From a virus (taxonomy: Duplodnaviria > Caudoviricetes), in the IMG/VR virus record IMGVR_UViG_3300028048_003124: 64,000 bases of DNA. One strand, given 5' to 3'. The notes beneath the pieces were generated by a model that saw only the letters and a list, made by a program, of their open reading frames with translations, did no database searches and was not told the origin of the DNA. A program made the position numbers and the translations under genes. Below, piece after piece: positions 24,923 through 52,208 of this stretch; the first letter of the stretch is position 1, and the number at the start of each line of letters is the position of its first letter.

Positions 24923-25246
24923 ATGGCGGTATATGATTTAAAAAGGGTGACTAAAGCCTATGTAAGTGGCTTTTATAAATATATAAATTTTAAGAAACTA
25001 AACGATGCTTCGGCTAGTGGTTTATATGATTTATTCTCTTATAGTTTAAAGAATATATATGGTTTACCCCCATCCGAGAAAGGGTACTATATAGATATGT
25101 ATGGAGATAGTTGTATAGATTATTTAAAGAAGTTAAAGGGTGTACCGAAAAGGATTGATAGGTTAGGCTCTACCGAAAGGTTGAGCATTGTGACTATGTG
25201 TCAGAGTTATTTTGTGGCTGTTGATTATGTACACTTTAATAAATAA
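24923..25246 (+). CDS. Hypothetical protein
   Basis: Part of the 24830..25246 ORF; start moved to ATG 24923 (RBS GGAAGG) because the upstream part overlaps the terminator. Confidence 0.6.
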   Translation: MAVYDLKRVTKAYVSGFYKYINFKKLNDASASGLYDLFSYSLKNIYGLPPSEKGYYIDMYGDSCIDYLKKLKGVPKRIDRLGSTERLSIVTMCQSYFVAVDYVHFNK

Positions 25247-25257
25247 GAGGTTGTAGT

Positions 25258-26082
25258 ATGGGTATTAAAAACCATTTTGAGGACTGTCCTTATAACTGTA
25301 ATATGTTCGGTAAGTTGCTTGATCCTAATACTGGAAACATGATAGACTGCCCCCATTGTTCTAAACTAAAAAAGGAGATGCTTGCTAAGGGTGTTGCAGT
25401 AGAAGAGGATGAAAATAGGACATTACCTTTAGCGGAGCTATTGGGTATAAAGTCTAAATATCTTTCTAAAAACTTTGTCTTTGATACTCTAATACCTGAG
25501 GGTGAGTGTCTTTTTTTAGAAGATGATAGTATTGATTTTGTTAAACGAGAAACAGAGGCTTTATACCATACGCTATCATTAGGGGAATTACCTGAGTACA
25601 GTGTATGCTTTGGTATATCTATAAAGGGTAGGGCTGATAGATTGGCTTATCCTTTATTAGCGACCAGTTATCTTAAAGGTTTGAGTGTAGGTAAGTTTAT
25701 AACCTGTAGTGAATTAAGCAGACTACAATTAAAGGGTAGTGATGAGTACGATAGTTATATATCTTCAGATGTTCAAATCATTTTAATAGGAGAGGGTAGT
25801 ACAAAGGGTGAAATCTCTTGTGCAAAGGGTTTAATGCAGTCAAGAGCATTAAAAGGTAAACCGACAATTTTTATAACTACTTGGACGATAGAAGCTTGTA
25901 GTCTAATGCTTGGGTATTTAGATGATACAGATAATATGCTGTTGGCTAGACCTGTATTTGTAAAGTATAAGAATAGTGGAAAGTCCTCTAATTACATTAA
26001 CAAATTGACAGGTGTAGAGAACGATAGGTATGATGAAGAAACCGACATGGGTGGACAGGGTTTTTCAATTGCAGATTTATAA
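25258..26082 (+). CDS. DnaC/IstB-like helicase-loader homolog with degenerate ATPase motifs
   Basis: N-terminal Cys cluster (CPYNC...CPHC), FVFDT, ITCSEL, QSRALKGKPTIFITT; Walker A and B degenerate. Confidence 0.55.
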   Translation: MGIKNHFEDCPYNCNMFGKLLDPNTGNMIDCPHCSKLKKEMLAKGVAVEEDENRTLPLAELLGIKSKYLSKNFVFDTLIPEGECLFLEDDSIDFVKRETEALYHTLSLGELPEYSVCFGISIKGRADRLAYPLLATSYLKGLSVGKFITCSELSRLQLKGSDEYDSYISSDVQIILIGEGSTKGEISCAKGLMQSRALKGKPTIFITTWTIEACSLMLGYLDDTDNMLLARPVFVKYKNSGKSSNYINKLTGVENDRYDEETDMGGQGFSIADL

Positions 26083-26106
26083 TATAAGTAAAGAGAGGTT
26101 GTAATT

Positions 26107-27267
26107 ATGAAATATAATGATGTAGTTTTTCGTAATCCAATTAAGGTTGTAACTTGTGAGAGTGTTACAGAAGGTCATCCTGATAAGTTATGTGATATTA
26201 TATCAGATTCTATTCTTGATGCATATCTTTCAAAAGATAAGAATGCAAGAGTAGCTTGTGAGACTATTGCTAAGGATAATACGATTATCCTAGTAGGTGA
26301 GGTATCAAGTAATGCTTACGTTGATAGAAGAAAAGTCGTATCTAAGGTACTGAAGAAAGTAGGGTATGACGATGAGGAGTTGTGGGGTACCGATTACAAA
26401 ACATTTAAACTGATAGACTTGTTGGGAAGTCAGTCGAAAGATATAAGCAAAGCCGTAAACAAGGAAAAAATACAAGCAGGAGACCAGGGGATTATGTATG
26501 GGTATGCTTGTGATGAGACAGATTGTTTCATGCCTTTAGCTTATGTTTTGGCAACAAGATTGGTAAAGAAGTTAGCAGAGGAGAGAAAGTCTGGGCATTC
26601 AAACTTCTTGGGACCTGATGGTAAGGCTCAGGTATCTGTTGTGTATTATGATGATGGTACTTATGAGGTAGCTAATGTTGTAATTTCATCCCAGCATTTT
26701 ACAATATCTTTAGATAAAGATAAGGAGCTTGAAATTCTTCGTAAGAGTATTCTTGATTATGTTGTGAAGCCAGTATTGGGTGCATTAATGCCACGAGAGG
26801 GTGCTGTGTTTATCAATCCAGCTGGAAGATTTGCTATTGGTGGACCTACTGGAGATAGCGGTTTAACTGGTAGGAAGTTGATGGTCGATACCTATGGTGG
26901 TGTAGCCCATCATGGTGGTGGTGCTTTCAGTGGTAAAGATCCAAGTAAGGTAGATAGAAGTGGTGCATATTTTGCAAGATGGCTAGCTAAGCTAGTAGTA
27001 TGTAGGGGTATCGCTAGTGAATGTGAGGTTATGTTATCTTACATGATAGGAAGATCTGAAACGACGAGTGTACTCGTTAATGCAAAATACAATGAAGGTT
27101 ATAAATTAAGAGATGTTTTAGATATTGTTGAGGAGTTTGATAGCTCTCCTCAGGGTATTATTGATAGGTTTAAACTATTTGATATTCATAACTATTCAAG
27201 TGTTGCAGCCTATGGACATTTTGGTGAAAATGCCAAGGATATGCCTTGGGAGAACGTTGAATTATAA
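26107..27267 (+). CDS. metK: S-adenosylmethionine synthetase
   Basis: ESVTEGHPDK, AGDQG, DGKAQV, GLTGRK, GGGAFSGKDPSKVDRS, AAYGHFG. Confidence 0.97.
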   Translation: MKYNDVVFRNPIKVVTCESVTEGHPDKLCDIISDSILDAYLSKDKNARVACETIAKDNTIILVGEVSSNAYVDRRKVVSKVLKKVGYDDEELWGTDYKTFKLIDLLGSQSKDISKAVNKEKIQAGDQGIMYGYACDETDCFMPLAYVLATRLVKKLAEERKSGHSNFLGPDGKAQVSVVYYDDGTYEVANVVISSQHFTISLDKDKELEILRKSILDYVVKPVLGALMPREGAVFINPAGRFAIGGPTGDSGLTGRKLMVDTYGGVAHHGGGAFSGKDPSKVDRSGAYFARWLAKLVVCRGIASECEVMLSYMIGRSETTSVLVNAKYNEGYKLRDVLDIVEEFDSSPQGIIDRFKLFDIHNYSSVAAYGHFGENAKDMPWENVEL

Positions 27268-27286
27268 ACAACTTGTTATATTAAGA

Positions 27287-27336
27287 TAACGGTATTAATT
27301 GTAAGTTTTTGCTTATATTAATGCCGTTAATTTTTT
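27287..27336 (+). terminator. Rho-independent terminator of metK
   Basis: TAACGGTATTAAT...ATTAATGCCGTTA long stem followed by T6. Confidence 0.8.
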
Positions 27337-27703
27337 AGATATAGATTTTTAGTCTGGTATGGCAGACTAATTAAAAACTATGAGATAGAAGTAAAAGTAT
27401 TATAAATTAGAAGTAGGTTGTTTAAGATTTTTTCCTAAATTTGATTTATTTAATGTTTAATAGATTATATGGTTTTTGGTAAAGATTATTAAATAAAAAT
27501 TTCTTAGAATTGTGTATTTTATATAGATTGTATCAAAGAATTTTAGTTATTTTTATGTGTTTAGTTTCTTGTAGGTATAGTAATTTTTTATTTTGTTTTA
27601 AAATAAATATTCCAAGAAGGATCTTTTTAGTTTAACTAAAGAGTCTTTAGTTTTAACTTAAATAAAGATTGCCTATATTATAATTTTAAAAGGAGCAAAA
27701 ACA

Positions 27704-29251
27704 ATGGGGTATACGCCTAAGATTTATAGGGTTGCAGATATGTTAAAGGGTGTTGAGTATGATAATAATTTCAAAGATGATGATGTTTACTTTTGGTCGA
27801 CTCCAAGAGGAGATGGTTATGGAACAGTAAAAGATATGGTAGAAACTTGTGGTTTGTACGATAAGTATGAGTTTATGTGTAAATATTGTAATGTAAAAAC
27901 CTTAAAGATGGGTGTAAGTATCGTAAACACTGGTTTATTGTGCAAGGATTGTGCAAAAACAAGTTATTATGTCAACACATGGTCAAAGGTTTTTCCGTTT
28001 TTTGATAAGATGTATGATTCGGAAAAGAATACTGTTCCTCTTGAAAGGTTAAGGAGAAGTGATAATAAGAATGATTACTGGTTTGTATGTGAAAAAGGTC
28101 ATAGTTTTACTTCAAAAATAAGAGGGGTATTAAATAGTACAACTGGTTTTCATGGTTGTCCTGTGTGCTCTGGAAGGAGTTTAGTAGAGGGTAATTCACT
28201 ATATGATGTTTTTGGAGATATGGTAGACGGGTATTGGGATTATGGCAAGAATGACAGTAACGGACTAAAACCTGATATGATAGCTCCTCATTCAAATGTC
28301 AGGGCTTTTTGGAGGTGTATTAATTGTGGTAAGACCTATGAACAGCCGATATGTAATAGGGTAGTTTCAGTAGGGTATTGTCCTGATTGCGTGAGTAAGA
28401 TGTACCAGTCGTCTGGAGAGGCTGAACTGGCTGATTGGCTTAGTAGGTATGTCGATGTAGTTGAAAGGTATAAATTCGCAGGAAGGGGTACAGAGTTAGA
28501 TATTTATATACCATCAAAGCATATAGGCATAGAGTTTAATGGTATATATTATCACTCTGATGCGATATTAACCGATAAGAATAGTGACTATAAAAAGTAT
28601 AAGAAAGCAGAAGAGAGGGGTATAACCTTTATGTGTGTGTCTGGGAGGACGACTGGAAGTACAAGAAAGACTTGGTAAAGCTAATGATACTAAGGAAATT
28701 AGGTTTAAGCACCGAGAGGAAGGTAAATGCAAGAGATTGTAGGGTAGTTAAAAGCTCTGGTTCTTCTGGGTTGTTAGATAGTTATCACATTCAAGGAAAG
28801 GTAAATGTAGGCTGTAAATATTATCACTTAGTTGAGAAAAATGGTAATGTAGTAGCCGAGTTAGCCTATAAACAAGATGAAGAGAGTGTATACATAATCA
28901 GATATGGCAGCTCCTGAATAGTAAGGGGGTGGTTTTTCTAAGATTTTGAGCGTATTAAAGTCAACCGAAGGGTGTAAGATTATTTACACCTTCTCGGATA
29001 ACTCTGTATCTGACGGTAGTATGTATAGGGTGTGTGGTTTCAGAAAGGTAGAAGATTTGAGACCAGATTACTCCCACGTATCCAAGGGTAGAAGGGTACA
29101 TAAATCAAACTTTCGGAAGGACAGATTCCTCAAAGACGAGGGATTGATTTACAAGGAAGGGTTAACTGAGAAAGAATTAGCTATGGTAAACGGATTAAAC
29201 AGGGTATATGATTATGGCAAGGTACGTTGGGAGTTAGCTGTTGAGAAATAG
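27704..29251 (+). pseudogene. Disrupted zinc-ribbon/PD-(D/E)XK endonuclease (homing-endonuclease-like), copy 1
   Basis: Fragments 27704..28678, 28633..28917 and 28946..29251 are collinear with the intact paralogs. Lesions: +TG near 28632-28639, TGA at 28915-28917, +G near 28925-28929. Confidence 0.85.
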
Positions 29252-29280
29252 TAATCTATTGAGAAGGGTATAGAGAGCAA

Positions 29281-29838
29281 ATGAGGAAGATAGTATTTGT
29301 AGATATGGACGGTGTAGTAGCCCGTTATGAGAGGTGGGCTTACCGTGGCAGAATTATAGATGATGTAAGAGAGAAAGAACCCATCTTTACGCAGAAGGGT
29401 AGTAAGTTTTTCAGAACTTGTAAACCTGATTTAAATGCAATAAGGATGGTAAAAGGCTTAAACAGTATAAACTCCTTATCAGTAATGGTATTATCAGGGG
29501 TATCATCAGGGGAAGTTGGTGAGGAGCAGATAGAAGATAAGTCCTACTGGTTAAAGAAAAATATGCATTTCCTAAACGAAACACAACAGCTATTCACAAG
29601 TGGTAGTAAGGTAGCAGAGGCTTGTAACTTTTTAGGTATAAGGAAACTAAACAAAGACTTAATTTTAATAGATGATTTTAATGGCAACCTGTTAGAGTGG
29701 GAGAAGGCTGGAGGAGTGGCAATAAAGTATATCAATGGGGTAAACTCAGAGAGCAGCTGGAATGGTTTAAAGGTAAGAAGCGATAGTGTTGTAGGGGATA
29801 TAGTAGTTATAATGAATACATTGGGTATAGTTTGTTAG
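29281..29838 (+). CDS. HAD-family 5'(3')-deoxyribonucleotidase (NT5C-like)
   Basis: FVDMDGVVA, LIDDF..NL.EW.KAGG.AI. Confidence 0.8.
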   Translation: MRKIVFVDMDGVVARYERWAYRGRIIDDVREKEPIFTQKGSKFFRTCKPDLNAIRMVKGLNSINSLSVMVLSGVSSGEVGEEQIEDKSYWLKKNMHFLNETQQLFTSGSKVAEACNFLGIRKLNKDLILIDDFNGNLLEWEKAGGVAIKYINGVNSESSWNGLKVRSDSVVGDIVVIMNTLGIVC

Positions 29839-29854
29839 GCGTTTGTAAAAAGGA

Positions 29855-31879
29855 GTGTTTTGTATGATATATAAATTAGAGGACTATGTTGTAAATGCGG
29901 AAAAATTGTCGATGGACAAAGTATACACTTGGAGTATATTGGGTAATTTATATGACGGGACTGTACAAGATTTTATAGAGAGTACGCTAGATGTCGGTGT
30001 TACATACTCATTTGTGTGTAATAATTGTGGTAAAGTGTGTACTAAAGGTGTAAATTCAATATTAAGGGGTGGACTTTTGTGCGCACCTTGTGCAAGGGCA
30101 GTGGGGAGACAGAAAAAGAAATTGGAGAAAGGTTTAAGCTTGTACAATTATTACCCAGTTGTTGCAGAGTGGTTTGATAATGCAGGAAATGGTGTCAGTT
30201 CTAAAGATGTGTATTTTAACTCTCAAGATAAGTATTTGTTCAAATGTCCAAAGTGTGGGGTAATATACAAGAAGGCTCTTAATCTTGTGGTAAACTCTTA
30301 TGTAAAGCATAACTCAAACGGATGTAGGGTATGTGCAGGATATCAGGTATTGGAGGGTTTTAATGATATAACTGCGAGAAATAAACCATCAGCAGAGTAT
30401 TGGGACGAGGAGAAAAATGGAATACCAAGTAATAGGGTATTGTGGAGTGACCAAAATCCTCGATGGTTTAGATGTCCTGAGGGGCACTCTTATCAAAGAA
30501 CACCTTTCAGAATGTTAAACTCCTATAATAAGGGTATAGATGGTAAAGACCTATGTCCTATATGTAAAGGAACTGAGGTGCTGAAAGGATACAATGACAT
30601 AGCGTCTAGGAATCCTTTGGCACTAAGATACTGGGATTATGATAAGAATGGTGATAATACTCCAGAGACCGTTTATTACAGGTCTCACGTTCAGTACTGG
30701 TTTCGTTGTGGAGAGGGGCATAGTTTTCTAAAAAGACCTAATGAGTTTTATCTGCAACTGAACAATGTAGGTATGTCTGCTGAGGGTTGTCCTGTGTGTT
30801 CTGGAAATAGGTTTTCTGGTGGTGTTAACGATTTATTAACAAAGTATGGAGAAACAGTTGAAAAGTATTGGGATTATGAGAAGAACACAGAGAGACCTGA
30901 AGAGGTGTTCGCCTATTCAGGGAAAGAGTATTGGTGGAAATGTGTAAAATGTGGGAAAAGTTTCTTGCTTGACAACGACAGAAGGGTGCGAGGTTTAGGT
31001 TTGTGTGAAGATTGCAGGGTAATAAAATCTGTCAGTACTTTTGAAATTGAGGTTTACAATGAGGTGAAGAAACTGTACTTAAACGCTGAAAGTCAGGTAC
31101 AGTTTGATGGGATGACATACGATATCTACGTGCCAGATAGGAAATTAGTTATTGAGTGTAATGGTGTGTATTGGCATTCAGATGCCGTAAGTAGGTATAC
31201 AGATGGAAATCATAATAAAAAGAGGCTCAATACTCTAAGAAAGAATAGGTTGTCCCTATTTGTAATATGGGAAGATCAGTGGGTAACAAATAAAGACCTG
31301 GTTCTGAGGGTATTAAAAAGAAAACTTGGTAAGAGTACTGAAAAGAAGGTAAATGCCAGAGACTGTGTAGTATCTGAACAAGGAAGTAGTTCAGGGGTAA
31401 TACAAAACAATCATATTCAAGGTGATGTGGGTGTTGGTTGTAGATATGTTTCATTGGAGCTAAACGGGTATCCTGTGGCAGAGATAGCCTATAAGTTAGA
31501 TGAGAATGGTTTATACATATGTAGGTATGCAACAAACAGTCTTGTTAGAGGTGGTTTTTCGAAGTTATTAAAATATCTGATTGATACAGCTTGTGATGAT
31601 GGATGTTGTATATACACCTTTTCAGATAATAGTATATCTGACGGAAACCTATATAGGGTATGTGGTTTTGAAAAAGTTGATGAGTTAGCATCTGATTATA
31701 TGTATGTCTATAAAGATATAAGGTATCATAAATTTAACTTTCGAAAGAGTAGATTTAAAAAAGACCCTAATTTAAAATTTGAGGAGGGTATGACTGAAAG
31801 AGAATTAGCAAACCTTAATAAAATATACAGGGTATATGATTATGGCAAGGTAAAGTGGCAATTGATAGTAAAAAAGTAA
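29855..31879 (+). CDS. Zinc-ribbon (DUF4379-like) repeat + PD-(D/E)XK endonuclease, copy 2
   Basis: Repeated W.Y.KN...W..C..GH...GCP.C units; YDIYVP..LVIECNGVYWHS, IWED; C-terminal RGGFSKL/TFSDN/YDYGK domain. Confidence 0.8.
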   Translation: MFCMIYKLEDYVVNAEKLSMDKVYTWSILGNLYDGTVQDFIESTLDVGVTYSFVCNNCGKVCTKGVNSILRGGLLCAPCARAVGRQKKKLEKGLSLYNYYPVVAEWFDNAGNGVSSKDVYFNSQDKYLFKCPKCGVIYKKALNLVVNSYVKHNSNGCRVCAGYQVLEGFNDITARNKPSAEYWDEEKNGIPSNRVLWSDQNPRWFRCPEGHSYQRTPFRMLNSYNKGIDGKDLCPICKGTEVLKGYNDIASRNPLALRYWDYDKNGDNTPETVYYRSHVQYWFRCGEGHSFLKRPNEFYLQLNNVGMSAEGCPVCSGNRFSGGVNDLLTKYGETVEKYWDYEKNTERPEEVFAYSGKEYWWKCVKCGKSFLLDNDRRVRGLGLCEDCRVIKSVSTFEIEVYNEVKKLYLNAESQVQFDGMTYDIYVPDRKLVIECNGVYWHSDAVSRYTDGNHNKKRLNTLRKNRLSLFVIWEDQWVTNKDLVLRVLKRKLGKSTEKKVNARDCVVSEQGSSSGVIQNNHIQGDVGVGCRYVSLELNGYPVAEIAYKLDENGLYICRYATNSLVRGGFSKLLKYLIDTACDDGCCIYTFSDNSISDGNLYRVCGFEKVDELASDYMYVYKDIRYHKFNFRKSRFKKDPNLKFEEGMTERELANLNKIYRVYDYGKVKWQLIVKK

Positions 31880-31908
31880 AGATTGCTCTAAAAACCTTAT
31901 AGACAGGG

Positions 31909-31937
31909 TTGTATTAATAGTAGAAATATGGTAAAAT
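31909..31937 (+). promoter_or_regulatory. sigmaA-type promoter of gyrB (extended -10)
   Basis: TTGTAT-N17 (ending TGG)-TAAAAT. Confidence 0.75.
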
Positions 31938-31977
31938 ATATTTAGAATCAAATTTAGGTTCTTATTTCGTATAAGGA

Positions 31978-34032
31978 GTGAAAACTATGGCTGATAAAAG
32001 GTATGACGACAGTTCGATATCCCAGCTTAAAGGCGCAGAGCGTGTAAGGTTGAGACCTGAAGCTCTATTGGGCAGTAGGGGTATTGACGGTGCAATCCAT
32101 ACCATTCAGGAGATCATTGGTAATGCCACTGATGAAAAACTGGCAGGGTATGGAGATCAGCTCGACATTTGTTACCGCGAAGATGGGAGTATCTCTATCA
32201 GAGATTATGGTAGAGGAGTACCTCTTGGTTGGAATGAGAAAGAGCAGGCTTGGAATTACAACCTAATTTATAACGAGTTGTATGCAGGCGGTAAGTACGC
32301 TGATAACCAGCAGGTTCTCAGAGATATTGACGAGAGAAATGATTGGGAAGCCTTTAGAATGGAGGACCACCCATATTTGATTTCTATCGGTCTCAACGGT
32401 CTTGGCGGAGCGGCTACTCAGTATAGTTCTAAGTACTTCATTGTAAAATCTTACCGTGATGGCGTAATGTCAGAGATGCAGTTCGAGAAGGGGTGTCCCA
32501 TCCTTGATGAACTGATAGTCGAGAAAACAGATGAACCCAATGGTACTTATATTGAGTGGAAACCTGATGACGATGTTTTCACAGATACTGACATACCCGA
32601 GAAGTGGTTTGAGAACACTTGCAAGGCATTGGCTTTTGTATCTGGTTTTAAGGTTAATCTGAATATCAAAGGTGAACAGTATACATTTAATGCAAGTTCT
32701 ATTTCTAATGAGATGAAGGAGTCTGTTGGTGATTGTGTTTTTGGTCATAACTTTAAGCACATTGTTGACGGTACTGGTGATGTCTGTATTTGCGATGTAG
32801 AGATTGCAATTGGACCTAACGGTAGAAATCAGGATTTTTACCACAATAAGGTAGCAATTAGAGGTGGAGCTCATGCAACTGGCGTATACACTGCCTTAAG
32901 CCAGTTCTTCTATAAGGTAAGTCAGAATAACGGTATTAAGATTACAGAGAGGGACTACGCAGGAAAGTTTTCTGTAATTATTTCTACTCTTGCCAATAAG
33001 GCAAGTCTTAGAAACCAGACAAAAGATAGTATTGACGATATGTGGATTGCTAGTCTCATTGCAGATACTATGTTTAATCTGCTATCTACAGAGTACTCAA
33101 AGGGTACTCCATGGCTACAGGGTATTATCGATGAGGTTGTTGTAAACGCTCAAAACAGAATTGCTGTAGCTGAGATGTCTAAGAACTTAAAAGAAGTTCA
33201 GAAGGCTACAACTCGTCATAAGGCAAGTAACAAGTTTGTAACCTGTCGTTCTTATGAAGATGGAAAAAGAGCAGCAGAAACAGAATTCTTTATTACAGAG
33301 GGTGATTCTGCAGGTGGTAACGTCGTATTATCGAGAGATAGTGATTACCAGTGTCTTTTAAAAATTAGGGGTAAGTCTTTGAACGTATTCAAAGCTCCTT
33401 TGCAGAAACTCATCGCAAATAAAGAGATACTTGATATGATAAGTATCTTGGGCTGTGGTGTAGATCTGGGTATCGATGATTTTGAAACTTTTGATATAAA
33501 TAAGCTTAAGGTTGGTAAGATTATCTTTGCGACAGATGCCGACGTCGACGGAGCTCACATTCGCGTGTTACTTTTCCTTATTATTTACAGGCTCTTCCCG
33601 AAGCTTTTATCCTCAGGAAACATCTACGTTGCAGAGACCCCTCTGTACGTGCTGAATATGAAAAACAATGAGTCTATCTACTGCATGACCGAGGAAGAAA
33701 TGAGAGAAAAGAGTGCCGAGTTAAGCGGTCAGATACGTACAATCGACCGTTTTAAGGGCTTAGGCGAGTGTTCGACTAGCGTCCTTTGGTCAACGATGCT
33801 CAATCCTGAAACACGAAGCTTACGTCAAATCAAAATAGATCCTAATGACACAGATATCTATTCAGCTCTTGAGGTACTCTTTGGTAAGTCAACAGCGGAT
33901 AGAAAGAGGGCTATCCTCGGAAGTATGTTGGGTACTGACTTCGATGAGACTATTGAGAGTATCGACGATATTGCAAATTACATTGATGGTCTTGAGTTAA
34001 ATAATCTGGAAGTAGAAGACGTAGAATATTAA
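31978..34032 (+). CDS. gyrB: Type IIA topoisomerase subunit B (GyrB/ParE family)
   Basis: EIIGNATDE, DYGRGVP, GLNGLG, TEGDSAGG, IRGK, TDADVDGAHI, RFKGLGE. Likely start ATG 31987. Gyrase versus topo IV cannot be settled by eye. Confidence 0.93.
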   Translation: MKTMADKRYDDSSISQLKGAERVRLRPEALLGSRGIDGAIHTIQEIIGNATDEKLAGYGDQLDICYREDGSISIRDYGRGVPLGWNEKEQAWNYNLIYNELYAGGKYADNQQVLRDIDERNDWEAFRMEDHPYLISIGLNGLGGAATQYSSKYFIVKSYRDGVMSEMQFEKGCPILDELIVEKTDEPNGTYIEWKPDDDVFTDTDIPEKWFENTCKALAFVSGFKVNLNIKGEQYTFNASSISNEMKESVGDCVFGHNFKHIVDGTGDVCICDVEIAIGPNGRNQDFYHNKVAIRGGAHATGVYTALSQFFYKVSQNNGIKITERDYAGKFSVIISTLANKASLRNQTKDSIDDMWIASLIADTMFNLLSTEYSKGTPWLQGIIDEVVVNAQNRIAVAEMSKNLKEVQKATTRHKASNKFVTCRSYEDGKRAAETEFFITEGDSAGGNVVLSRDSDYQCLLKIRGKSLNVFKAPLQKLIANKEILDMISILGCGVDLGIDDFETFDINKLKVGKIIFATDADVDGAHIRVLLFLIIYRLFPKLLSSGNIYVAETPLYVLNMKNNESIYCMTEEEMREKSAELSGQIRTIDRFKGLGECSTSVLWSTMLNPETRSLRQIKIDPNDTDIYSALEVLFGKSTADRKRAILGSMLGTDFDETIESIDDIANYIDGLELNNLEVEDVEY

Positions 34033-34039
34033 AAGCTAA

Positions 34040-34069
34040 GGGTATGCTGATAGATATATTGGCATACCC
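34040..34069 (+). terminator. Hairpin after gyrB
   Basis: GGGTATGCTGATA-GATA-TATTGGCATACCC stem; no strong T tract. Confidence 0.55.
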
Positions 34070-34090
34070 ATAATTTATAGGAGGGTAATA

Positions 34091-34600
34091 GTGAATTGTT
34101 ATAGTCTTTCGATGTTAAGAAATATTTTAAATACTGTTAATATCGATATGGTGTCAAACAGATTTCCACCAAATAACAATACTTTTCTTGTTATAAACAA
34201 TGCCTGTAAGGTATGGTTTAAGGATGGTTATGCTCCAAAGGAGTTAGAGAAATATGTTATTTATAGATTTGATATGGGTTTATCTGTAGATAATATATCC
34301 AAAACTATGCAAGTAACAAACGCAAAAGTTTCTCGTTCTCTTAACCTGTTTGTAAAGAATGTCAGATGGGTATTAAGAGACTCTATTGCTAGTGGGGTTT
34401 ATAAAAGGCTCGTTAGTGAATTTCCTGAGATACTATACATGCCTAAGGTGTGTAAGGCTTTACATAGCTTTAATATCTTGGATACTTATGATATGGCTTT
34501 TTGTGATTTTGATGCTATATTAAAGTCTAAGAGGTTTTCTTCGAAAGATAAGTCAAAGTTAAAGGAAATTCGGTCAATTTGTGAAAGAAAGTATAATTAA
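34091..34600 (+). CDS. Degenerate sigma70 region 4-like HTH + RNAP alphaCTD-like protein
   Basis: YRFDMGLSVDNISKTMQVTNAKVSR (HTH-like); PKVCKALHSFNI...AILKSKRFS (alphaCTD-like). Confidence 0.5.
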   Translation: MNCYSLSMLRNILNTVNIDMVSNRFPPNNNTFLVINNACKVWFKDGYAPKELEKYVIYRFDMGLSVDNISKTMQVTNAKVSRSLNLFVKNVRWVLRDSIASGVYKRLVSEFPEILYMPKVCKALHSFNILDTYDMAFCDFDAILKSKRFSSKDKSKLKEIRSICERKYN

Positions 34601-35138
34601 GGGTTGTTTGTGTATGTGTTTTGATATAAATGGAAATGAGAAAAAGTTTTTATTAAATGTATATAACGGTATATTAAAAGTAGCTAAAAATAAAAAATTA
34701 TATACAAGTTTCTCAACAATGGAAATATTGAGTTGTCTAAAGAGAGTTATAGACACATCAGTCAGTAAGGGTATTTTAACAGATAGAGAGTATGCAACGT
34801 TATATTCAAAGTTTTGGAACGGTTTTTCAGATGCAAAGATTGCAAGTTTTGAGGGCATAAGTAACTCTATGATTTTTTATAGAGTTAAGTGGTCTATATT
34901 AAAAGTGCTTAACTTTGAGTTATTAAAAGAATTAAAAGCATTTCCAGATGGTGCTATAGAATATGTAAATATGTCTAAAAGGGCTTACAATGCCTTAAAA
35001 ATAAATGGTGTAAATACTGTAAGTGCTTTATGCGATATGTCAGATGATGTCATTTTGTCTAAAAAGCATATTGGTGAAACACTTGGTAGGGAAATTTGCG
35101 GTATTAAGGAGAGGTTAATACATGAGGAAGCTAAGTAA
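34581..35138 (+). CDS. sigma70 region 4-like HTH + RNAP alphaCTD fusion
   Basis: LTDREYATL...GFSDAKIASFEGIS; IEYVNMSKRAYNALKINGVNTVSAL...KHIG. Likely start ATG 34614. Confidence 0.75.
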   Translation: MKESIIKGCLCMCFDINGNEKKFLLNVYNGILKVAKNKKLYTSFSTMEILSCLKRVIDTSVSKGILTDREYATLYSKFWNGFSDAKIASFEGISNSMIFYRVKWSILKVLNFELLKELKAFPDGAIEYVNMSKRAYNALKINGVNTVSALCDMSDDVILSKKHIGETLGREICGIKERLIHEEAK

Positions 35139-35784
35139 TAAAGGTAAGAAAAACTTTAAAAAAGTTTTATATGTTGGTTTATACATAGTAATTATAAGCT
35201 GGATGGTTGTATCTGGTATTCAGTTATGGTTAGACTGTGCCATTTTAGATAATAACTACTCAAATATGTTGGTAGATAAGCAAGATGGTAGTATTACAGA
35301 GGTTGCTGATGTTTATAGTAATGGTGACTTTACTTTATCTGACGACGGTACAGTTCTAAAGTCAGATAGTGATATAAATAATTATGTAAGGGTACCAAGT
35401 TATGGTAGTTACTACTATAATAAAGAAAACAAGTCTTTCTTTGCGCCATTAACAAAGGTAGAAACAAGAAACCTAATGCTTAAGTTTGTATTGTTAGATA
35501 TGCTGAGTTTTATCATAATGATTATACTCCTTGTCCATAATAGGAATAAGGGTACTTGGTTAAAAGTAATTATATGGGTTTCAGAGCTTCTATATGCTTT
35601 TGGGACATACTTGGTATATGCAAACGCTCTAAGTGTACTTTACAGAGTAGAGAAAGGTGTATGGATTATACCTTTGGCTAAATTGGCGATATTATGTATT
35701 GTATTATTAATTGCATTTATAGTAGATGCAAGAAAAGATACAAAACTACCTTTAAGACTTCATAGGAGGAAGAAAGATGGTTAA
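35122..35784 (+). CDS. Multi-pass membrane protein
   Basis: About four hydrophobic helices with one large loop. Confidence 0.7.
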   Translation: MRKLSNKGKKNFKKVLYVGLYIVIISWMVVSGIQLWLDCAILDNNYSNMLVDKQDGSITEVADVYSNGDFTLSDDGTVLKSDSDINNYVRVPSYGSYYYNKENKSFFAPLTKVETRNLMLKFVLLDMLSFIIMIILLVHNRNKGTWLKVIIWVSELLYAFGTYLVYANALSVLYRVEKGVWIIPLAKLAILCIVLLIAFIVDARKDTKLPLRLHRRKKDG

Positions 35785-36730
35785 TTCAACATATAAGTAT
35801 GCTAAAGCAATGGGGTATGTATCTCGTATAGCGTCTACGATAGTATACATAGTAAACGGGAATATGTATGAGTATGGTGCTTGTGTACATTTTAAAATAT
35901 GTAGAAAAGATTTGTACTCTTTTTATTCTTTTAGTCGTAATGCGGCAAAAAAGTCAATAAGTACGCCAAAGACTCAAAGCAAAGAGGTTATTGCTCTTTG
36001 GTATGCTTCTTTGCTAACGAGGTCGGTAGAGGCTCTTGCAAATGGTGCAAGTATTTCCGTTATTGTAAACACGTTTGGGGTATCAAGATCTAATATAAAC
36101 TGGGTGGTCAGTAAGGCGATGAAAGAATATGTGAAAGATGATCCGCCTGAGTTAGATTTGTACAGGCTTGTCTTAGGTGGTGATATATCATCAAAAGATT
36201 TGCCTGTTGATTATAAAGAAACAGTAAAGTATCTTTTAGGTTTATTATCTCCTAGAAGAGAGATGGTTTTAAGGATGCGTATTGGTCTAGATAATAACAA
36301 GCATACTTTAGATCAGGTAGCAAGGGAGTTTAATGTAACTAAGGAAGTTGTAAGACGTATTGAGTCTCAGGCTCTAATGGAACTGCGTAGTTCTGGGAAA
36401 GTTGATATGTTAAAGCTCGGTATTAAAAAATACAATTCTCTTCCAACAACTAAGGAGATTGTTGGTAAAGACAAACCAATAGAGCAGTTTAATTTTTCTG
36501 TAAGGACATATAATTGTTTAAAAAGGGCAGGTTTTAATACTTTAAGTGATTTTAACGGTGTGTCAGTTTATAAGTTACTTCAGATACGCAATTTTAGAGA
36601 ATGGTGTGTAGAAGAGGTAATAAGCTCACTTAAAAAGTCCAAGTGTGTGAGTTTTTCAGGCAATGTGGATAATATTAGTTTAACTAAAAATGTAGATGCC
36701 CTGAGAGGTATTACTATTAAGATTTTGTGA
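35777..36730 (+). CDS. sigma70 region 4 + RNAP alphaCTD fusion protein
   Basis: LSPRREMVLRMRIGL...TLDQVAREFNVTKEVVRRIESQALMELR (sigma 4); PIEQFNFSVRTYNCLKRAGFNTL...IRNF (alphaCTD). Confidence 0.85.
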   Translation: MVNSTYKYAKAMGYVSRIASTIVYIVNGNMYEYGACVHFKICRKDLYSFYSFSRNAAKKSISTPKTQSKEVIALWYASLLTRSVEALANGASISVIVNTFGVSRSNINWVVSKAMKEYVKDDPPELDLYRLVLGGDISSKDLPVDYKETVKYLLGLLSPRREMVLRMRIGLDNNKHTLDQVAREFNVTKEVVRRIESQALMELRSSGKVDMLKLGIKKYNSLPTTKEIVGKDKPIEQFNFSVRTYNCLKRAGFNTLSDFNGVSVYKLLQIRNFREWCVEEVISSLKKSKCVSFSGNVDNISLTKNVDALRGITIKIL

Positions 36731-36738
36731 GGTAAGCA

Positions 36739-37674
36739 ATGAGTAGCAGATTATCGCAAGAAAAAGCATCAGAAGGTATTAAGTATATTGGCAAGATATA
36801 CAATGCTTTATACGCAATAAAAAACAAAATGGTAGACGAATGGGTAGCCTGTAAAGCTGTTGGTATTTATAGAAAAGATCTTTGGTCTTTTTATAGAAAG
36901 GTTCAGAAACATACAGGAAGTTACTCTTTTTATAACAAGACCGCAGTTGCTTTAGGTTACTCAGGAAGGCTGATTAAGGCTTTAGAAAAGTTATCCTATG
37001 GTAATGATAGTAATAGGGTTTGTCAGATGTATAATGTACAGTGGTCTCACATTCTGTGGGCTATTGATAGAGCAAATGTTAAGTATGTATTCAACGATCC
37101 GCCTGAGTTAGACCTATATAAAGATTTGCTTGAAAATGATGCGTTAACTGTAAAGGATTTGCCTAAAGATTACAGAAATACCGTTGTTTACTGTTTATCT
37201 AAAGTCAAGTACAAGGATGCTAAAGACGTTTTAGAACATTATTACGGTATTTACGGTAATAAGATGTCATTAGGTGATCTAGATACAATGTTAAGTAAAC
37301 CAAAAGGTTCTAGCTCAGCTGCAAGAAGTCGTGGGCTAAACTTCTTAAGAAAGTATTTTATGCACCTGCTGACAACTGGTCTTGCAAGTGCGGATATCAT
37401 GGACCCAAACACTGTAAGTTTGGACAGCTTATTCGGTCAAAGAGTAGCAAGCAGTCTAAACGAAATGGGTATAAATTCATTAAAAGATATGAATGGAATG
37501 TCCTATGCAGATTTGATATACATTCGTAATTTCGGTGATGAGGTAGTGAAAAGCATTTTTGAAAGGTTAAGTATTTTGTCTTGTATTAGGTTTAGTAGGA
37601 AGATTGATTCCTATGATAAGCTGTGTGAAGAACCCTACACGAGGATTTTGGTATATTCGTGTCCTGATTGTTAG
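36739..37674 (+). CDS. Paralog of 35777..36730 (degenerate sigma 4 + alphaCTD)
   Basis: Shares RKDL.SFY, DPPELDLY and KDLP.DY..TV.Y.L; RVASSLNEMGINSLKDM...IRNFG. Confidence 0.75.
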   Translation: MSSRLSQEKASEGIKYIGKIYNALYAIKNKMVDEWVACKAVGIYRKDLWSFYRKVQKHTGSYSFYNKTAVALGYSGRLIKALEKLSYGNDSNRVCQMYNVQWSHILWAIDRANVKYVFNDPPELDLYKDLLENDALTVKDLPKDYRNTVVYCLSKVKYKDAKDVLEHYYGIYGNKMSLGDLDTMLSKPKGSSSAARSRGLNFLRKYFMHLLTTGLASADIMDPNTVSLDSLFGQRVASSLNEMGINSLKDMNGMSYADLIYIRNFGDEVVKSIFERLSILSCIRFSRKIDSYDKLCEEPYTRILVYSCPDC

Positions 37675-37728
37675 TTAATTGTATATAACAATAAAGAATT
37701 AAATATTTACAAAATAGAAGGAGAACCT

Positions 37729-39795
37729 ATGGGTATTCATAAAAAGTACTTAACACCTCAACTTTATTGTAAAGATATTATAGATTTTTCTATGAAAGAA
37801 AAAGTTTATAATTGGGTAATAAATGGTGAAGAGTATTCTGGAACCTTATTAGATTTCTTCTCTGAGTATAGGTATAAAGATATTCAAGGAGATAGTTGTT
37901 GTGATGTAGAGTCTATAAAAAAGGGTTATAAAAATTTTATAAATTCTTTGAGTGGTATATACAGTCACGAGAGTGTTATAGCAGGTATATGCCCTGTTTG
38001 TAATATGTTTGCAACAGTATCTTGGTATAGATATAATAGTGGTGGTTTTAAATGTAAACAGTGTTCTACTGTGAAAGGTTTGTCAATTGCTGATAATGAG
38101 AAGGTTAAAGCTTTATATTTAAGAGCTAACAATATTTTCCCGCCAGAGTCTATACCCTTGTATTCTCAGAAGGATATAAAGTTTAAGTGTTCAGTAGGTC
38201 ATGAATTTTATAGACGCCCATCATCAATAGTGAGGAACGGTGTGATAGGCGAAGGTTGTCCTATTTGCAACAATTCGTTAAACGCCACAAATTTTCTTAA
38301 AGATAATCCTAAAGCGGCATCTATGTGGGATTATACAAGAAACGGTATAAATCCAGAAGATGTGGCAAGGAGTAGTGGTAAGTATTATTGGTTTGTATGC
38401 CCAGAAGGTCATAGTTTTCAATCTTCACCGAATATTTTAGATAGAAGAAGGAATAGTGTAGGTTTTGGTTGCCCTGAGTGTTATAGATTATATAAGTTAA
38501 ATACTTATAATTTAGCTTCAAGGTATCCAACAATATACAAGTATTGGGATGATCGAAATCCCGAAGACCCTGCTGATGTAATGTCAGACCCAGAGGGTAT
38601 AAATAGTGATAAATTATATTGGGTTCATTGTGATTTCGGTCATGTGTATAAACAGTCTGCATGTAAAATAGGTAAGAGTTTCAATAAAGATGGTATAAAG
38701 AGATGTCCAGTGTGTTCTGGGCAGTTCTTGCAGAGTGGTGTCAATGATTTGAAAACTTTAATGCCTAAGGTAGCAGAATGTTGGGATTATGAGAGGAATA
38801 CTTCTTTACCAGAAGACTATGCTCCATTTTCTCACAAGCCAGCATGGTTTAAGTGTGTAGTATGCGGTAGGAGTGTGTACTATAAGTCCATAAATGATAG
38901 AAGCAAGTCTGCAGGTTATTGCAAAGATTGCGCTTCTAAATTCAACCAATCATTAACAGAAAAGGAACTTATAAATTATGTAACAAGCCTAGGTTTCGAA
39001 GTAAAAACAGATAAGACTTTAGGCGATATGCACTACAAGTATGATATGTATATAGCTGAGATGGGGCTGTTAATAGAGTACAATGGTGTATATTACCACA
39101 GTGAGGCTGTTCATACTGATAAGATGCGACATTATAAGAAATATGCTGAGGCTAAAAACGCAGGTTTAGACTTATTTGTAATTTGGGAAGATGATTATAA
39201 AAGAAACCCAGATTTGATAAAGCGTATGTTGAGAAATAGATTAAACGTGTCTATTGAGAGTAAGGTTAACGCAAGAGATTGCATTGTTGTCTACCCAGAT
39301 ACAGTATCCGCAAAGGTTTTTCTAAATGAAAATCATATACAGATGTCTGGTGGGTTGAATACATACTTAGCTTTATCATTAAATGGGTTTTTTGTAGCTG
39401 TAATGGCATATTCCGTAAAAGATGGTGTTGCTACAATAAATAGATATGCAACATCTTGTAATGTTAGAGGTGGTTTTTCCAAATTATTAAAAGTTTTGAG
39501 CAGTAATGATGAACTTACGGCTATAGAGACTTTTTCAGATAATAGCATATCCGATGGAGATCTGTATAAAAACAGTGGTTTTGTTATTACTAAACATATA
39601 AAACCCGACTACAGTTATTTGTACAAGGGTAGGGAAAGGGTACATAAGTTTAATTTAAGAAAAAAAGCATTTCAAAAAGACGTAAATCTAGTTTATAAAG
39701 AGGGTATGTCTGAGGCAGAGTTGGCTGAGTTAAACGGTTTATATCGTATATGGGATTATGGTAAAAAGAAATGGAGACTAGATTTAACTTTGTAG
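37729..39795 (+). CDS. Zinc-ribbon (DUF4379-like) repeat + PD-(D/E)XK endonuclease, copy 3
   Basis: Same architecture as 29855..31879; YDMYI...LIEYNGVYYHS, IWEDD, RGGFSKL, TFSDN, WDYGK. Confidence 0.8.
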   Translation: MGIHKKYLTPQLYCKDIIDFSMKEKVYNWVINGEEYSGTLLDFFSEYRYKDIQGDSCCDVESIKKGYKNFINSLSGIYSHESVIAGICPVCNMFATVSWYRYNSGGFKCKQCSTVKGLSIADNEKVKALYLRANNIFPPESIPLYSQKDIKFKCSVGHEFYRRPSSIVRNGVIGEGCPICNNSLNATNFLKDNPKAASMWDYTRNGINPEDVARSSGKYYWFVCPEGHSFQSSPNILDRRRNSVGFGCPECYRLYKLNTYNLASRYPTIYKYWDDRNPEDPADVMSDPEGINSDKLYWVHCDFGHVYKQSACKIGKSFNKDGIKRCPVCSGQFLQSGVNDLKTLMPKVAECWDYERNTSLPEDYAPFSHKPAWFKCVVCGRSVYYKSINDRSKSAGYCKDCASKFNQSLTEKELINYVTSLGFEVKTDKTLGDMHYKYDMYIAEMGLLIEYNGVYYHSEAVHTDKMRHYKKYAEAKNAGLDLFVIWEDDYKRNPDLIKRMLRNRLNVSIESKVNARDCIVVYPDTVSAKVFLNENHIQMSGGLNTYLALSLNGFFVAVMAYSVKDGVATINRYATSCNVRGGFSKLLKVLSSNDELTAIETFSDNSISDGDLYKNSGFVITKHIKPDYSYLYKGRERVHKFNLRKKAFQKDVNLVYKEGMSEAELAELNGLYRIWDYGKKKWRLDLTL

Positions 39796-39801
39796 ATATT
39801 A

Positions 39802-39830
39802 TTGCATATTTGGTAGAAATATGGTATAAT
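39802..39830 (+). promoter_or_regulatory. sigmaA-type promoter of gyrA-dnaB (extended -10)
   Basis: TTGCAT-N17 (ending TGG)-TATAAT, followed by RBS AGGAGG. Confidence 0.85.
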
Positions 39831-39861
39831 ATATGTAGACCTAGAAATTTAGGAGGTTTAT

Positions 39862-42039
39862 ATGCAGAACGAAATTTATAATGGCGTTTCTGATGGTTTT
39901 AGCTTCTTAGTAGATGGGTATATGGATTACTCTAAAGAGGTAATAGCGAGACGTGCTATTCCTGATCTAAGAGATGGATTAAAACCTGTTCAGCGCAGAA
40001 TTATGTATGCAGCCAAGTTGGCTGATAAAGGTATGATGCAAAAGTGTGCAACCTTTGTTGCTGACTCTATGAAACTTCACCCGCACGGCGACTCCTCTGT
40101 GTATGGTGCTTTTGTTCTTATGACAGATGTTAACGGTTCATGGAACGTACCTGTTATTAAAGGTATGGGTAATCTTGGTAAGGTTTATTCTAAGAACCCT
40201 CCTGCAGCATATCGTTATCCTAAGGCTATGCTTCACGAGAACGCCAAGGAATATTTCAAGGAAAAAGACGTTTTTGACCTAGTCCAATCCGAAGAGGGTG
40301 ATGGTGTAGAGCCCGTCGTTCTGTACCCATCATACCCATCAGTTCTTGTAAACGGAACAGCAGGTATTGCAGTATCAGTTGGTACAAGAATTCCGTCATT
40401 CAATTTCATAGATGTCCTCGAGATGACTAAAAAGTTCATCCAACAGGGAAAATTAGATCCTGTTAAGGATATCATCTATCCTGATTTTCCGACAGGCGGT
40501 ATTCTCGTAAAGACTGATTCTGAGGTTGCTAAGATTATGGCAACTGGTATCGGTAAACTGAAAATCAGAGCGAAGGTAGAGATTAACGGTAACGAGATCA
40601 TAGTAAAGGAAGTACCCTACGGTAAAACAGTAGAGGGTATCGTAGAGCAGATTGAGTCCTCTGATATGAGGGAGATCAAGTCTGTTATGAATCTAACGGG
40701 TAATAACTCAGTCGGAAAGGTAGTTATCCAGTGTAGAAGCAAGAGGGTAGTTGAATGGGTACTCCTTGAGTTATACAGAAGAAATATCCTGCAAAATTAT
40801 TATGCAAGTAATATTCTTGTAATCAATGATGGTAAGCCCTATATTTACGGTGTTCATAAGATCGTAGAAGAATGGGTAAAGTTTAGAAGAAATGTAATAA
40901 TTAAAAAGTTCAATCATGAACTGGATGGGCTTTCTTCCGAACTATTAACTCTTGATTACTTTATTCGTTTAATCTCAAACACTGAGTGGAAAGATACTTA
41001 CGTTCAGAAAGCAACTAAGGTATCTAAGAAAGATGCGGATGTCTATCTTCATGAGATTTTTGATGATATTCCTCAGGATGTTTGTGATTGGATTAATGGT
41101 CGTGCGATTAGTGCTTTTAATAACGGCGGTCGGTATATGAACAGATATAACGACTTATCGGAGTATAAAAAGTATTGTGAAGATATGCACAATAATCCTG
41201 ATAAGTATATTTTAAATGAGCTCGACGAGCTTATATCAAAAAACAAGTCTTTACATCCTCGTAAGACCTTTATTTCTAACACTGATTACAAGTTTAGTAA
41301 GATCGTAGAAGCAGAGGGTATTGAGGACGATTCGCCTTGTGTATATACGCTAACTACTGATGGATTCCTATTTAAGACACGTGATGTGCCGAACATTAAC
41401 TCAAGCATCATGAACCAGTTTAAAGGTCAGGCAAACAGTGTACTTGTGGGATTTGATAAGTTTGGTCGTGTTTTACGATTAAGCGGATCTGAGGTAGCAT
41501 ATACTGCACCTGGCTCTAATGGATTGTATCTGCCGAAGGTATTTGATGCTTCTTTCCAAGAGGATTATCGCATCCTCTATATGGGTTTGTGTGATGGTAC
41601 TAAGCGTATGCTTGTTTATAGAGATGGCTTCATCGGCTTTTTGGATACATCAGAATGGGTAGGGAAGAAAGTCGTTAAGGTTATCTCCAAGGGTGTATGC
41701 TTGGCTGTTATGGATAAATTGCTTGAAGTATATGAGGAGGAAGATATTCCTCAGTGCTTGCTTCTTGCAGATGATTCTGGAAAGAAGATTAAGTTAGGTG
41801 TACTTCATTCAAACGAGATCCCAGTTAGGGGTAGAACCAGTAGGGCGAAGGTGTTTAATGGTAAAAACATTGACACTAAGTATATTAAGGGTTGTTCGTA
41901 TTTTGAGTTAGCAACTTATTTAAAGAATCCTGATAGGTACTACAATAAGTTAACAAAGATCGAGGAAGATGCTTTTATTGGTGACATCGAAGAGATGGCA
42001 GATGGTAAGTATCTTGAGTTCTGCACAGACTTAGAATAA
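39862..42039 (+). CDS. gyrA: Type IIA topoisomerase subunit A (GyrA/ParC family)
   Basis: RAIPDLRDGLKPVQRRI, HPHGDS, catalytic AAYRY, LVNGTAGIAV, PDFPTGG. No canonical GyrA-box seen. Confidence 0.93.
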   Translation: MQNEIYNGVSDGFSFLVDGYMDYSKEVIARRAIPDLRDGLKPVQRRIMYAAKLADKGMMQKCATFVADSMKLHPHGDSSVYGAFVLMTDVNGSWNVPVIKGMGNLGKVYSKNPPAAYRYPKAMLHENAKEYFKEKDVFDLVQSEEGDGVEPVVLYPSYPSVLVNGTAGIAVSVGTRIPSFNFIDVLEMTKKFIQQGKLDPVKDIIYPDFPTGGILVKTDSEVAKIMATGIGKLKIRAKVEINGNEIIVKEVPYGKTVEGIVEQIESSDMREIKSVMNLTGNNSVGKVVIQCRSKRVVEWVLLELYRRNILQNYYASNILVINDGKPYIYGVHKIVEEWVKFRRNVIIKKFNHELDGLSSELLTLDYFIRLISNTEWKDTYVQKATKVSKKDADVYLHEIFDDIPQDVCDWINGRAISAFNNGGRYMNRYNDLSEYKKYCEDMHNNPDKYILNELDELISKNKSLHPRKTFISNTDYKFSKIVEAEGIEDDSPCVYTLTTDGFLFKTRDVPNINSSIMNQFKGQANSVLVGFDKFGRVLRLSGSEVAYTAPGSNGLYLPKVFDASFQEDYRILYMGLCDGTKRMLVYRDGFIGFLDTSEWVGKKVVKVISKGVCLAVMDKLLEVYEEEDIPQCLLLADDSGKKIKLGVLHSNEIPVRGRTSRAKVFNGKNIDTKYIKGCSYFELATYLKNPDRYYNKLTKIEEDAFIGDIEEMADGKYLEFCTDLE

Positions 42040-42055
42040 GAAAGGGGTAGATATA

Positions 42056-43720: not shown

Positions 43721-43733
43721 TATTCAGTTAACG

Positions 43734-43778
43734 AAATGCCGTTTAACTTTGATTATTAAAAGTTAAACGGCATTTTTT
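43734..43778 (+). terminator. Rho-independent terminator
   Basis: 17-bp perfect inverted repeat AAATGCCGTTTAACTTT/AAAGTTAAACGGCATTT ending in a T run. Confidence 0.9.
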
Positions 43779-43818
43779 ATATTTATATTTATATAGCCAT
43801 CAAGGGGGTTGCTCGTAA

Positions 43819-52170: not shown

Positions 52171-52208
52171 CACCTCATACAGTCGGGTAAGATTGTATGA
52201 GGTGTTTT
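52171..52208 (+). terminator. Hairpin/terminator overlapping the next RBS
   Basis: CACCTCATACAGTC-GGGTAA-GATTGTATGAGGTG followed by TTTT. Confidence 0.65.

Follow-up and report, generated by a model that had tools for sequence, protein, structure and literature searches.

The Hef endonuclease gene of phage U5 has been described as lying between nrdA and nrdB, where it replaces mobE (Edgell 2010 and other citing papers), and Hef-type enzymes are placed in the EDxHD family in the accessible part of Taylor et al. 2011 (PMC3239194). The accessible text of a Nucleic Acids Research paper (NAR 2025, PMC12350094) describes group II intron endonucleases that carry 3-5 CapR/DUF4379/DUF723-like units and an EDxHD/Vsr domain, and proposes that the units add DNA specificity. 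In the available portion of Iyer et al. 2021 (PMC7824862), the restriction endonuclease (REase)-Mom fusions of jumbo phages are read as restriction coupled to protective modification. Mom of phage Mu is a GNAT enzyme that modifies adenine in double-stranded DNA in a Gly-tRNA-dependent manner (PMC13219725, PMC7261163), and its residue R151 is essential (PMC13219725), as stated in the accessible parts of these reports. Here we analyze three related genes in a 64,000-nucleotide stretch of viral DNA (Duplodnaviria; Caudoviricetes; IMG/VR record IMGVR_UViG_3300028048_003124), the whole of which we call the window. Two of the genes are intact, copy A (29855..31879, + strand) and copy B (37729..39795, + strand), and the third is a broken copy (27704..29251, + strand).

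We consider it likely that all three are homing endonuclease genes of the free-standing, Hef-like type, with a nuclease of the Vsr-like EDxHD kind. This reading is carried by what we observed of their domain make-up and family, by the decay and chimerism of the broken copy, by a polymorphism between metK and gyrB, and by a bias in where the family sits in viral genomes. In the mechanism we propose, the N-terminal zinc ribbon and four DUF4379 units would hold the protein on a long DNA site, and the EDxHD nuclease would cut genomes without the gene at a site within or close to the conserved neighbor (gyrB, gyrA). With the carrier genome as repair template, the endonuclease gene would then be copied, flanks included, into the cleaved genome.

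A preliminary description of this DNA had recognized three zinc-ribbon-array endonucleases, and tblastn with both intact copies returned exactly three family members in the window. Copies A and B are 36.7% identical, and copy A shares 53-60% identity with the C-terminal pieces of the broken copy. All three begin with a zinc ribbon, continue through treble-clef zinc units of the DUF4379 type into a Vsr-like EDxHD nuclease, and end in a conserved C-terminal domain. Scores for Pfam DUF4379 (PF14311, cut-off 24.5 bits) were far above the cut-off, at 110.3 bits over 4 stretches of copy A, 90.4 bits over 3 of copy B and 61.4 bits over 2 of the broken copy, and the domain was matched by every protein in an alignment of 39 full-architecture family members. 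NCBIfam assigned no family to either intact copy or to the outer two pieces of the broken copy (the first and the third). The motifs RGGFSK, TFSDN and YDYGK/WDYGK, singled out in the preliminary description, are present in the copies and conserved across the family.

The zinc array of copy A spans residues 51-390 (30005..31024, + strand; Pfam DUF4379, 4 stretches, E 5.1e-32). By our count of Cys/His knuckles, read by eye, each intact copy has five predicted zinc sites, namely one N-terminal CxxC...CxxC ribbon and four DUF4379 units, and the broken copy has three. The knuckles of copy A are C55/C58+C76/C79, C131/C134+C157/C160, C207/H211+C234/C237, C285/H289+C312/C315 and C363/C366+C384/C387. 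In copy B, a protein of 688 amino acids, the zinc array covers residues ~85-403, the nuclease ~404-510 and the GNAT domain ~511-688. The arrays had been said to differ in sequence and length; they do differ in sequence, but the intact pair has the same number of units, and only the broken copy is shorter, through recombination. A full-length model of copy A had a predicted local distance difference test score (pLDDT) of 89.7 and a predicted template-modeling score of 0.49, values that would fit well-folded units on flexible links. Copy A has 674 amino acids when read from a GTG and 671 from its likely start, ATG 29864, which is preceded by AAGGAG; the latter is also the size of its relative P0001 (89% identical).

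The nuclease of copy A occupies residues 391-495 (31025..31339, + strand), with the putative motif residues E397, D423, N436, H441 and D474, which were mapped to published EDxHD residues by motif order and by a profile match to 3r3p_A. In the 39-protein alignment, E397 is kept in 38 sequences and each of the other four in all 39; I-Bth0305I likewise has Asn at the position of N436. A search of the family profile against the PDB matched I-Bth0305I (chain 3r3p_A, E 2.7e-6). A model of copy A residues 388-674 was predicted with a pLDDT of 95.3, and its first 106 residues resembled 3hrl_A (Z 11.8), I-Bth0305I chain 3r3p_B (Z 11.5, root-mean-square deviation 2.9, 95 of 98 residues, 23% identity) and Vsr (1cw0_A, Z 11.2). 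The PD-(D/E)XK fold proposed in the preliminary description is borne out, and structure, profile and residues together refine it, as judged from the model, to the Vsr-like EDxHD branch. Pfam REase_MTES_1575 (PF18741) gave 34.4 and 22.5 bits, below its cut-off of 38.2. Separately, we considered an HNH endonuclease, the label carried by PHROG 559, and ruled it out: the Pfam matches of the copies include no HNH family, and the label is therefore wrong here.

The likeness to Hef-type enzymes, also claimed earlier, is supported by several searches. The copies matched PHROG 3339 ("homing endonuclease") and PHROG 559 with E 1e-59 to 1e-71. With copy B as query, tblastn found 415 phage records, all at less than 60% identity; the best matches were Campylobacter phage genes annotated as Hef or Hef-like, at 8-11 places per record (37 Campylobacter rows among the best 40 of 415). 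The nuclease and GNAT core alone matched 405 phage records, 378 of them over at least 80% of the query, including PA5oct (5 places), huge uncultured phages, Lak-B2 and T4-type coliphages; among viral structure models, ~20 matched the core with TMq (query-normalized template-modeling score) 0.72-0.90. The homologue in the T4-type phage N2 sits between nrdA and nrdB (28% identical, E 1e-13). We confirmed at least 595 stretches of the family in a viral contig collection and 459 proteins at E 1e-10. The copies thus belong to a known family, annotated in GenBank as Hef-like homing endonucleases, and not to a new kind of system.

The broken copy is read as three open reading frames (ORFs), 27704-28678, 28633-28917 and 28946-29251. 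Compared with P0006, an intact relative of 674 amino acids, it has three lesions on the + strand: 2 extra bases in a (TG)n run (28632..28641), which shift the frame inside the nuclease motif FMCVWEDD; an in-frame TGA that replaces a Cys codon of the intact relative (28915..28917); and one extra T (28930..28930) in the GNAT domain, within RGGFSK. In the window TGA serves as a regular stop, ending 8 of 53 ORFs. The decayed copy reported in the preliminary description is thus confirmed, its frame being interrupted by shifts of +2 and +1 with a TGA between them, and it fits the decay stage of a homing cycle.

The broken copy also has two different nearest relatives along its length. Residues 1 to ~155 (27704 to ~28167) are 99% identical to P0121, an intact protein of 657 amino acids, and everything after about residue 148 follows residues 302-668 of P0006 at 90-95% identity. 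P0121 and P0006 share only 41% identity with each other. The switch falls at the zinc knuckle GCPVCSG. The intervening units are gone, leaving the ribbon, one P0121-type unit and the last P0006-type unit, and we attribute the short array to recombination that deleted the others. By these alignments the broken copy is a chimera of two paralogues in which the three lesions arose later, and recombination between paralogues inside the zinc array evidently does occur. A further sign of patchiness is seen in copy A, which differs from P0001 at 71 of 671 positions; 28 of the differences lie within residues 317-376, the first half of unit 4 plus its linker, and another cluster lies within 618-650.

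To describe variation among close relatives we used the contigs of four sequencing runs from four studies (X2, X3, X4 and X9) over positions 25200-45000, counting uncovered parts as absence only where a contig bridges them. X2 is represented by a 121.6-kb contig and X3 by one of 183 kb; outside a 197-base patch described below, both are ~98% identical to the window over 25200-28167 and 32002-45000, with 52 and 50 differences, respectively, in the 2968 bases of 25200-28167 and 187 in 11,198 bases from 32002 onward. Between these segments, X2 and X3 have 2365 bases of different sequence where the window has 3835 (28167-32002). This sequence opens with P0121, which a search with residues 1-154 of the broken copy returned at 99% identity over those residues and which occurs on contigs of up to 224 kb; the size and conserved motifs of P0121 fit the short matches to family motifs on the X2 and X3 contigs. 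The order in X2 and X3 is thus metK, one intact P0121-type gene, ~830 other bases and gyrB, with no room for copy A. The deoxyribonucleotidase gene that separates the broken copy from copy A in the window (29281..29838) has no cover at 80% likeness in X2 and next to none in X3. X4 has the arrangement of the window over 28527-31270 (~96% identical, 109 differences and 18 gaps) and in addition a 3725-base contig on which a relative of copy A runs into gyrB, a length equal to that of the contig of P0002 (66% identical to A); a joint in X4 from 27589 to 30496 consists of 27 letters only and was not relied on. Because the content between metK and gyrB varies between near-identical backbones, the endonuclease genes appear to be mobile.

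The flank of this variable stretch was also compared. In X2, the adjoining 5' part of gyrB diverges by 3.18% versus 1.69% elsewhere (p 1e-4), and in X3 the excess is weak (2.74% versus 2.02%, p 0.06); this is at most a hint of co-conversion. As a separate observation, a 197-base patch of gyrB (33605-33803, residues 540-606) is less than 80% identical in X2, X3 and X4, which are otherwise ~98% identical. The metagenome contig L001, which elsewhere shows no more than 70-80% identity, matches this patch at 189 of 200 positions. By sequence, the patch has the look of a short gene-conversion tract acquired from some distant lineage. Wider searches added little context: viral contigs searched with gyrA and gyrB held no related locus, metagenome contigs searched with gyrB yielded one 1393-base contig with the 3' end of gyrB only, and genome contigs searched with gyrA yielded only a bacterial gyrA, 29% identical.

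Homing endonucleases typically adjoin the most conserved genes of a genome, and defense genes have no need to. We surveyed the neighbors of the family at 77 viral loci, calling ORFs of at least 70 codons by a longest-ORF rule and comparing them with PHROGs at E 1e-10. Of 154 possible immediate neighbors, 140 could be tallied, by hand, the missing ones lying off contig ends: 16 were tail sheath genes, 10 tail tube, 11 major head and 3 large terminase, 40 in total, and 12 were members of the same family. Three genes away, where 120 of 154 positions could be tallied in the same manner, the counts were 2, 2, 1 and 0, a total of 5, with 1 member of the same family. The difference is significant by Fisher's test for the four core genes (40/140 versus 5/120, p 6e-8) and for same-family neighbors (p 0.004), although these p-values are too small because some loci are near-duplicates (for example L045/L048, L065/L068 and L046/L053); the contrast is still large. 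At one locus (L033:2859-7415), an ORF matching the large terminase subunit stands on either side of the family member, which seems to split a terminase gene. The proximity to tail sheath, tail tube, head and terminase genes fits homing.

The domain that sets these proteins apart from a plain nuclease is the C-terminal one, whose resemblance to Mom was missed in the preliminary description. In copy A it covers residues 496-674 (31340..31876, + strand). Residues 115-287 of the model adopt a predicted GNAT fold, with RimI (5isv_A) at Z 13.3 and many others at Z 11-13. Mu Mom (8bv8_B, Z 10.9) gave the longest alignment among the GNAT matches, at 142 residues, and in Foldseek Mom (8bv8_A) had the best query-normalized TM-score (E 8.4e-5); among viral models, the first named stand-alone match was a Mom. 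A sequence profile search of the PDB returned no match for the GNAT half. An hhalign comparison of the family with Mu Mom was weak (E 0.012), and in this alignment, from which our residue mapping is taken, the published active-site residues line up. Mom H58, R111 and Y159 correspond to H520, R557 and Y600, each kept in 39 of 39 family members; D149 corresponds to D591 (38/39) and S124 to S569 (Ser in 20, Thr in 15 and Gly in 4 of 39). R151 falls on S593, a variable column with Ser in 12 of 39, and Y59 on an isoleucine, I521. With this weak mapping, five of seven compared positions are kept and the equivalents of R151 and Y59 differ. Among the copies, Pfam Mom (PF25680) gave a single match, to the last of the three pieces of the broken copy, and its 19.1 bits fall below the cut-off of 27.1; in the family, only 2 of 39 members matched at E 0.01. 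As modeled, the C-terminal domain is Mom-like in fold and in most of its active site, and is at most a candidate member of the Mom family.

Besides the hand tally and the near-duplicate loci of the survey, several findings weigh against homing. The GNAT domain is the best conserved part of the protein (49-61% identity in paralogue pairs, where the nuclease reaches 37-50% and the zinc units 21-60%) and keeps catalytic residues of Mom, which plain homing fails to explain. Copy B is covered in all four runs, X2, X3, X4 and X9, and it differs from its nearest relative, P0124 (98% identical), by only 11 scattered residues, the next relative being 51% identical; copy B may be fixed or domesticated. 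The relatives compared in context are all close, at least ~96% identical. The preliminary description had taken fixed presence in all relatives as a sign against homing, and here the copies divide: copy A and the broken copy are not fixed, as X2 and X3 show, whereas copy B is present in 4 of 4. It had also called for a comparison with endonuclease-free relatives; X2 and X3 do carry other content, yet no endonuclease-free allele was found among the four. Finally, cleavage and its target sites are steps that we infer.

One way to accommodate the conserved GNAT half within homing is that it is an active DNA modifier aimed by the zinc array of the nuclease. It would mark adenine in the protein's own recognition site on the carrier genome and so confer self-immunity, making the protein a single-chain homing endonuclease with built-in protection, whose specificity could be reshuffled by recombination at the conserved zinc knuckles. 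The chimeric pseudogene is a record of such recombination. We put this idea forward as a tentative and rather unlikely extension; no paper testing the role of the Mom-like half in these endonucleases turned up in the literature we searched.

A related possibility is a cut-and-modify weapon, in which the Mom-like domain modifies adenines of the element's own DNA and the fused nuclease attacks unmodified host or competitor DNA, so that the genes serve the element and not only themselves. This is what Iyer et al. 2021 (PMC7824862) proposed for REase-Mom fusions, to go by the available portion of that paper, and it draws on the same observations: a GNAT fold closest to Mom by alignment extent, the near-invariance of the residues that match those of Mom (with Ser or Thr at S569 in 35 of 39) and the standing of the GNAT domain as the most conserved part. 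Yet the column of the essential arginine is variable, the tyrosine has given way to isoleucine, and the Pfam scores stay below cut-off. A defense gene, moreover, needs no conserved neighbors, no allele-for-allele replacement in near-identical genomes and no decay in place. The weapon is also compatible with homing and may overlap with it, since homing endonucleases too exclude the markers of competitors. We regard it as improbable as an explanation of the locus.

Both intact copies are followed by a promoter-like 21-base motif with an extended -10, which occurs on the + strand as TGGTAAAAT between copy A and gyrB (31920..31940) and as TGGTATAAT between copy B and gyrA (39813..39833). The pattern GTAGAAATATGGTAWAATATA has just these 2 matches in the window, each directly 3' of an intact copy, where 0.04 would be expected by chance; for a shorter core the enrichment disappears (9 matches versus 5.6 expected). 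The motif may co-regulate both gyrase subunits or be part of mobile cassettes. The X2 and X3 contigs rejoin the window only at 32002, beyond the motif at 31920-31940. The motif, together with the presence of copy B in every run and its single close relative, could be taken to mean that at least copy B is a domesticated or fixed, immobile DNA-binding protein that serves the element, for example in gyrase gene expression or repair, but this is very unlikely: the catalytic residues of the nuclease are all intact, the sister site 5' of gyrB is polymorphic, homing cycles ordinarily include a phase of fixation within a small clade, and the sample is four runs, all of close relatives.

The genes around the three copies are as follows. 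metK (26107-27267) is separated from the broken copy by an A+T-rich non-coding gap of 436 bases (27268-27703) that is ~98% kept in X2 and X3. Between this copy and copy A lies, on the + strand, a gene for a HAD-type 5'-3' deoxyribonucleotidase-like protein (PHROG 2643, E 3.9e-12). gyrB, encoding a topoisomerase II subunit B-like protein (31978..34032, + strand; Pfam and NCBIfam), probably starts at ATG 31987 and not at GTG 31978, and gyrA, encoding a subunit A-like protein (39862..42039, + strand; Pfam DNA_topoisoIV, E 9.6e-78, and NCBIfam), is followed by a DnaB-like helicase gene (42056-43720). Copy A ends ~100 bases 5' of gyrB and copy B 66 bases 5' of gyrA, in agreement with the earlier placement of the intact copies directly before these genes. 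Five small ORFs lie between gyrB and copy B (34091-37674); three of them match the Pfam RNA polymerase alpha C-terminal domain, and one of those three also matches sigma-70 region 4.

All ORFs of at least 80 codons in the window are on the + strand, with some short minus-strand ORFs also listed, and the G+C content is ~35%. One of the window's own proteins, P0122, lies on a contig of 229,201 bases, and the sequencing runs that contain the stretch are from bovine and sheep gut (19 rows, 11 studies, one of them probably the source). We therefore describe the DNA as part of an uncultured rumen element of at least 229 kb, either a large mobile element or a huge phage. Megablast of positions 26000-44000 against a phage collection gave no DNA-level match, and a PHROG scan of 33 other ORFs of the window gave few matches, none to a capsid or tail gene. 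An ORF of 514 amino acids (52197-53741) has weak PHROG matches to HNH endonuclease and ParB-like families and may be another nuclease, of a different family. A long ORF of 1828 amino acids (455-5941) has no PHROG match at E 1e-5.

New here are the swap of metK-gyrB content in relatives that are ~98% identical in the flanks and lack the copy directly before gyrB, the chimera at a zinc knuckle and the position bias across 77 loci. The locus catches the family in motion in natural rumen populations, with different paralogues at one site in near-identical backbones. The recombinant decayed copy shows how zinc arrays gain, lose and swap units, and the locus sharpens the question of what the strongly conserved Mom-like half does.

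Among known systems, the Hef and Hef-like genes of T4-type, ViI-like, Campylobacter and jumbo phages share the same core, a Vsr-like nuclease followed by a GNAT-like domain. Like them, the window copies are free-standing, oriented as their conserved neighbor gene and present in several copies per genome. The Campylobacter phage copies are 25-33% identical to those of the window and likewise have N-terminal zinc units. The N2 protein, by contrast, lacks DUF4379 units and an equivalent of D591, whereas the window copies have a ribbon, four DUF4379 units and most of the Mom active-site residues. I-Bth0305I has the nuclease fold and five motif residues in common with the window copies; unlike them it is intron-encoded, uses NUMOD/helix-turn-helix DNA-binding modules and, in the accessible account, has no GNAT domain. 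The group II intron endonucleases share the ~60-residue zinc units ahead of an EDxHD nuclease, but are intron-borne, with no C-terminal GNAT mentioned in the accessible text, while the window copies are free-standing. Mu Mom shares the fold and, under the weak hhalign mapping, five of seven active-site positions; in the window, unlike in Mu, the GNAT domain shares its polypeptide with a nuclease and a zinc array, scores below the Pfam Mom cut-off and keeps neither R151 nor Y59. The REase-Mom fusions of jumbo phages, to judge from the accessible text, have the same architecture and probably belong to the same gene family: the five momylating-enzyme genes reported for PA5oct appear to be the five family places found there by tblastn, one of them labeled Hef-like in GenBank. 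For the genes described here, the position, polymorphism and decay fit selfish homing better than restriction and modification.

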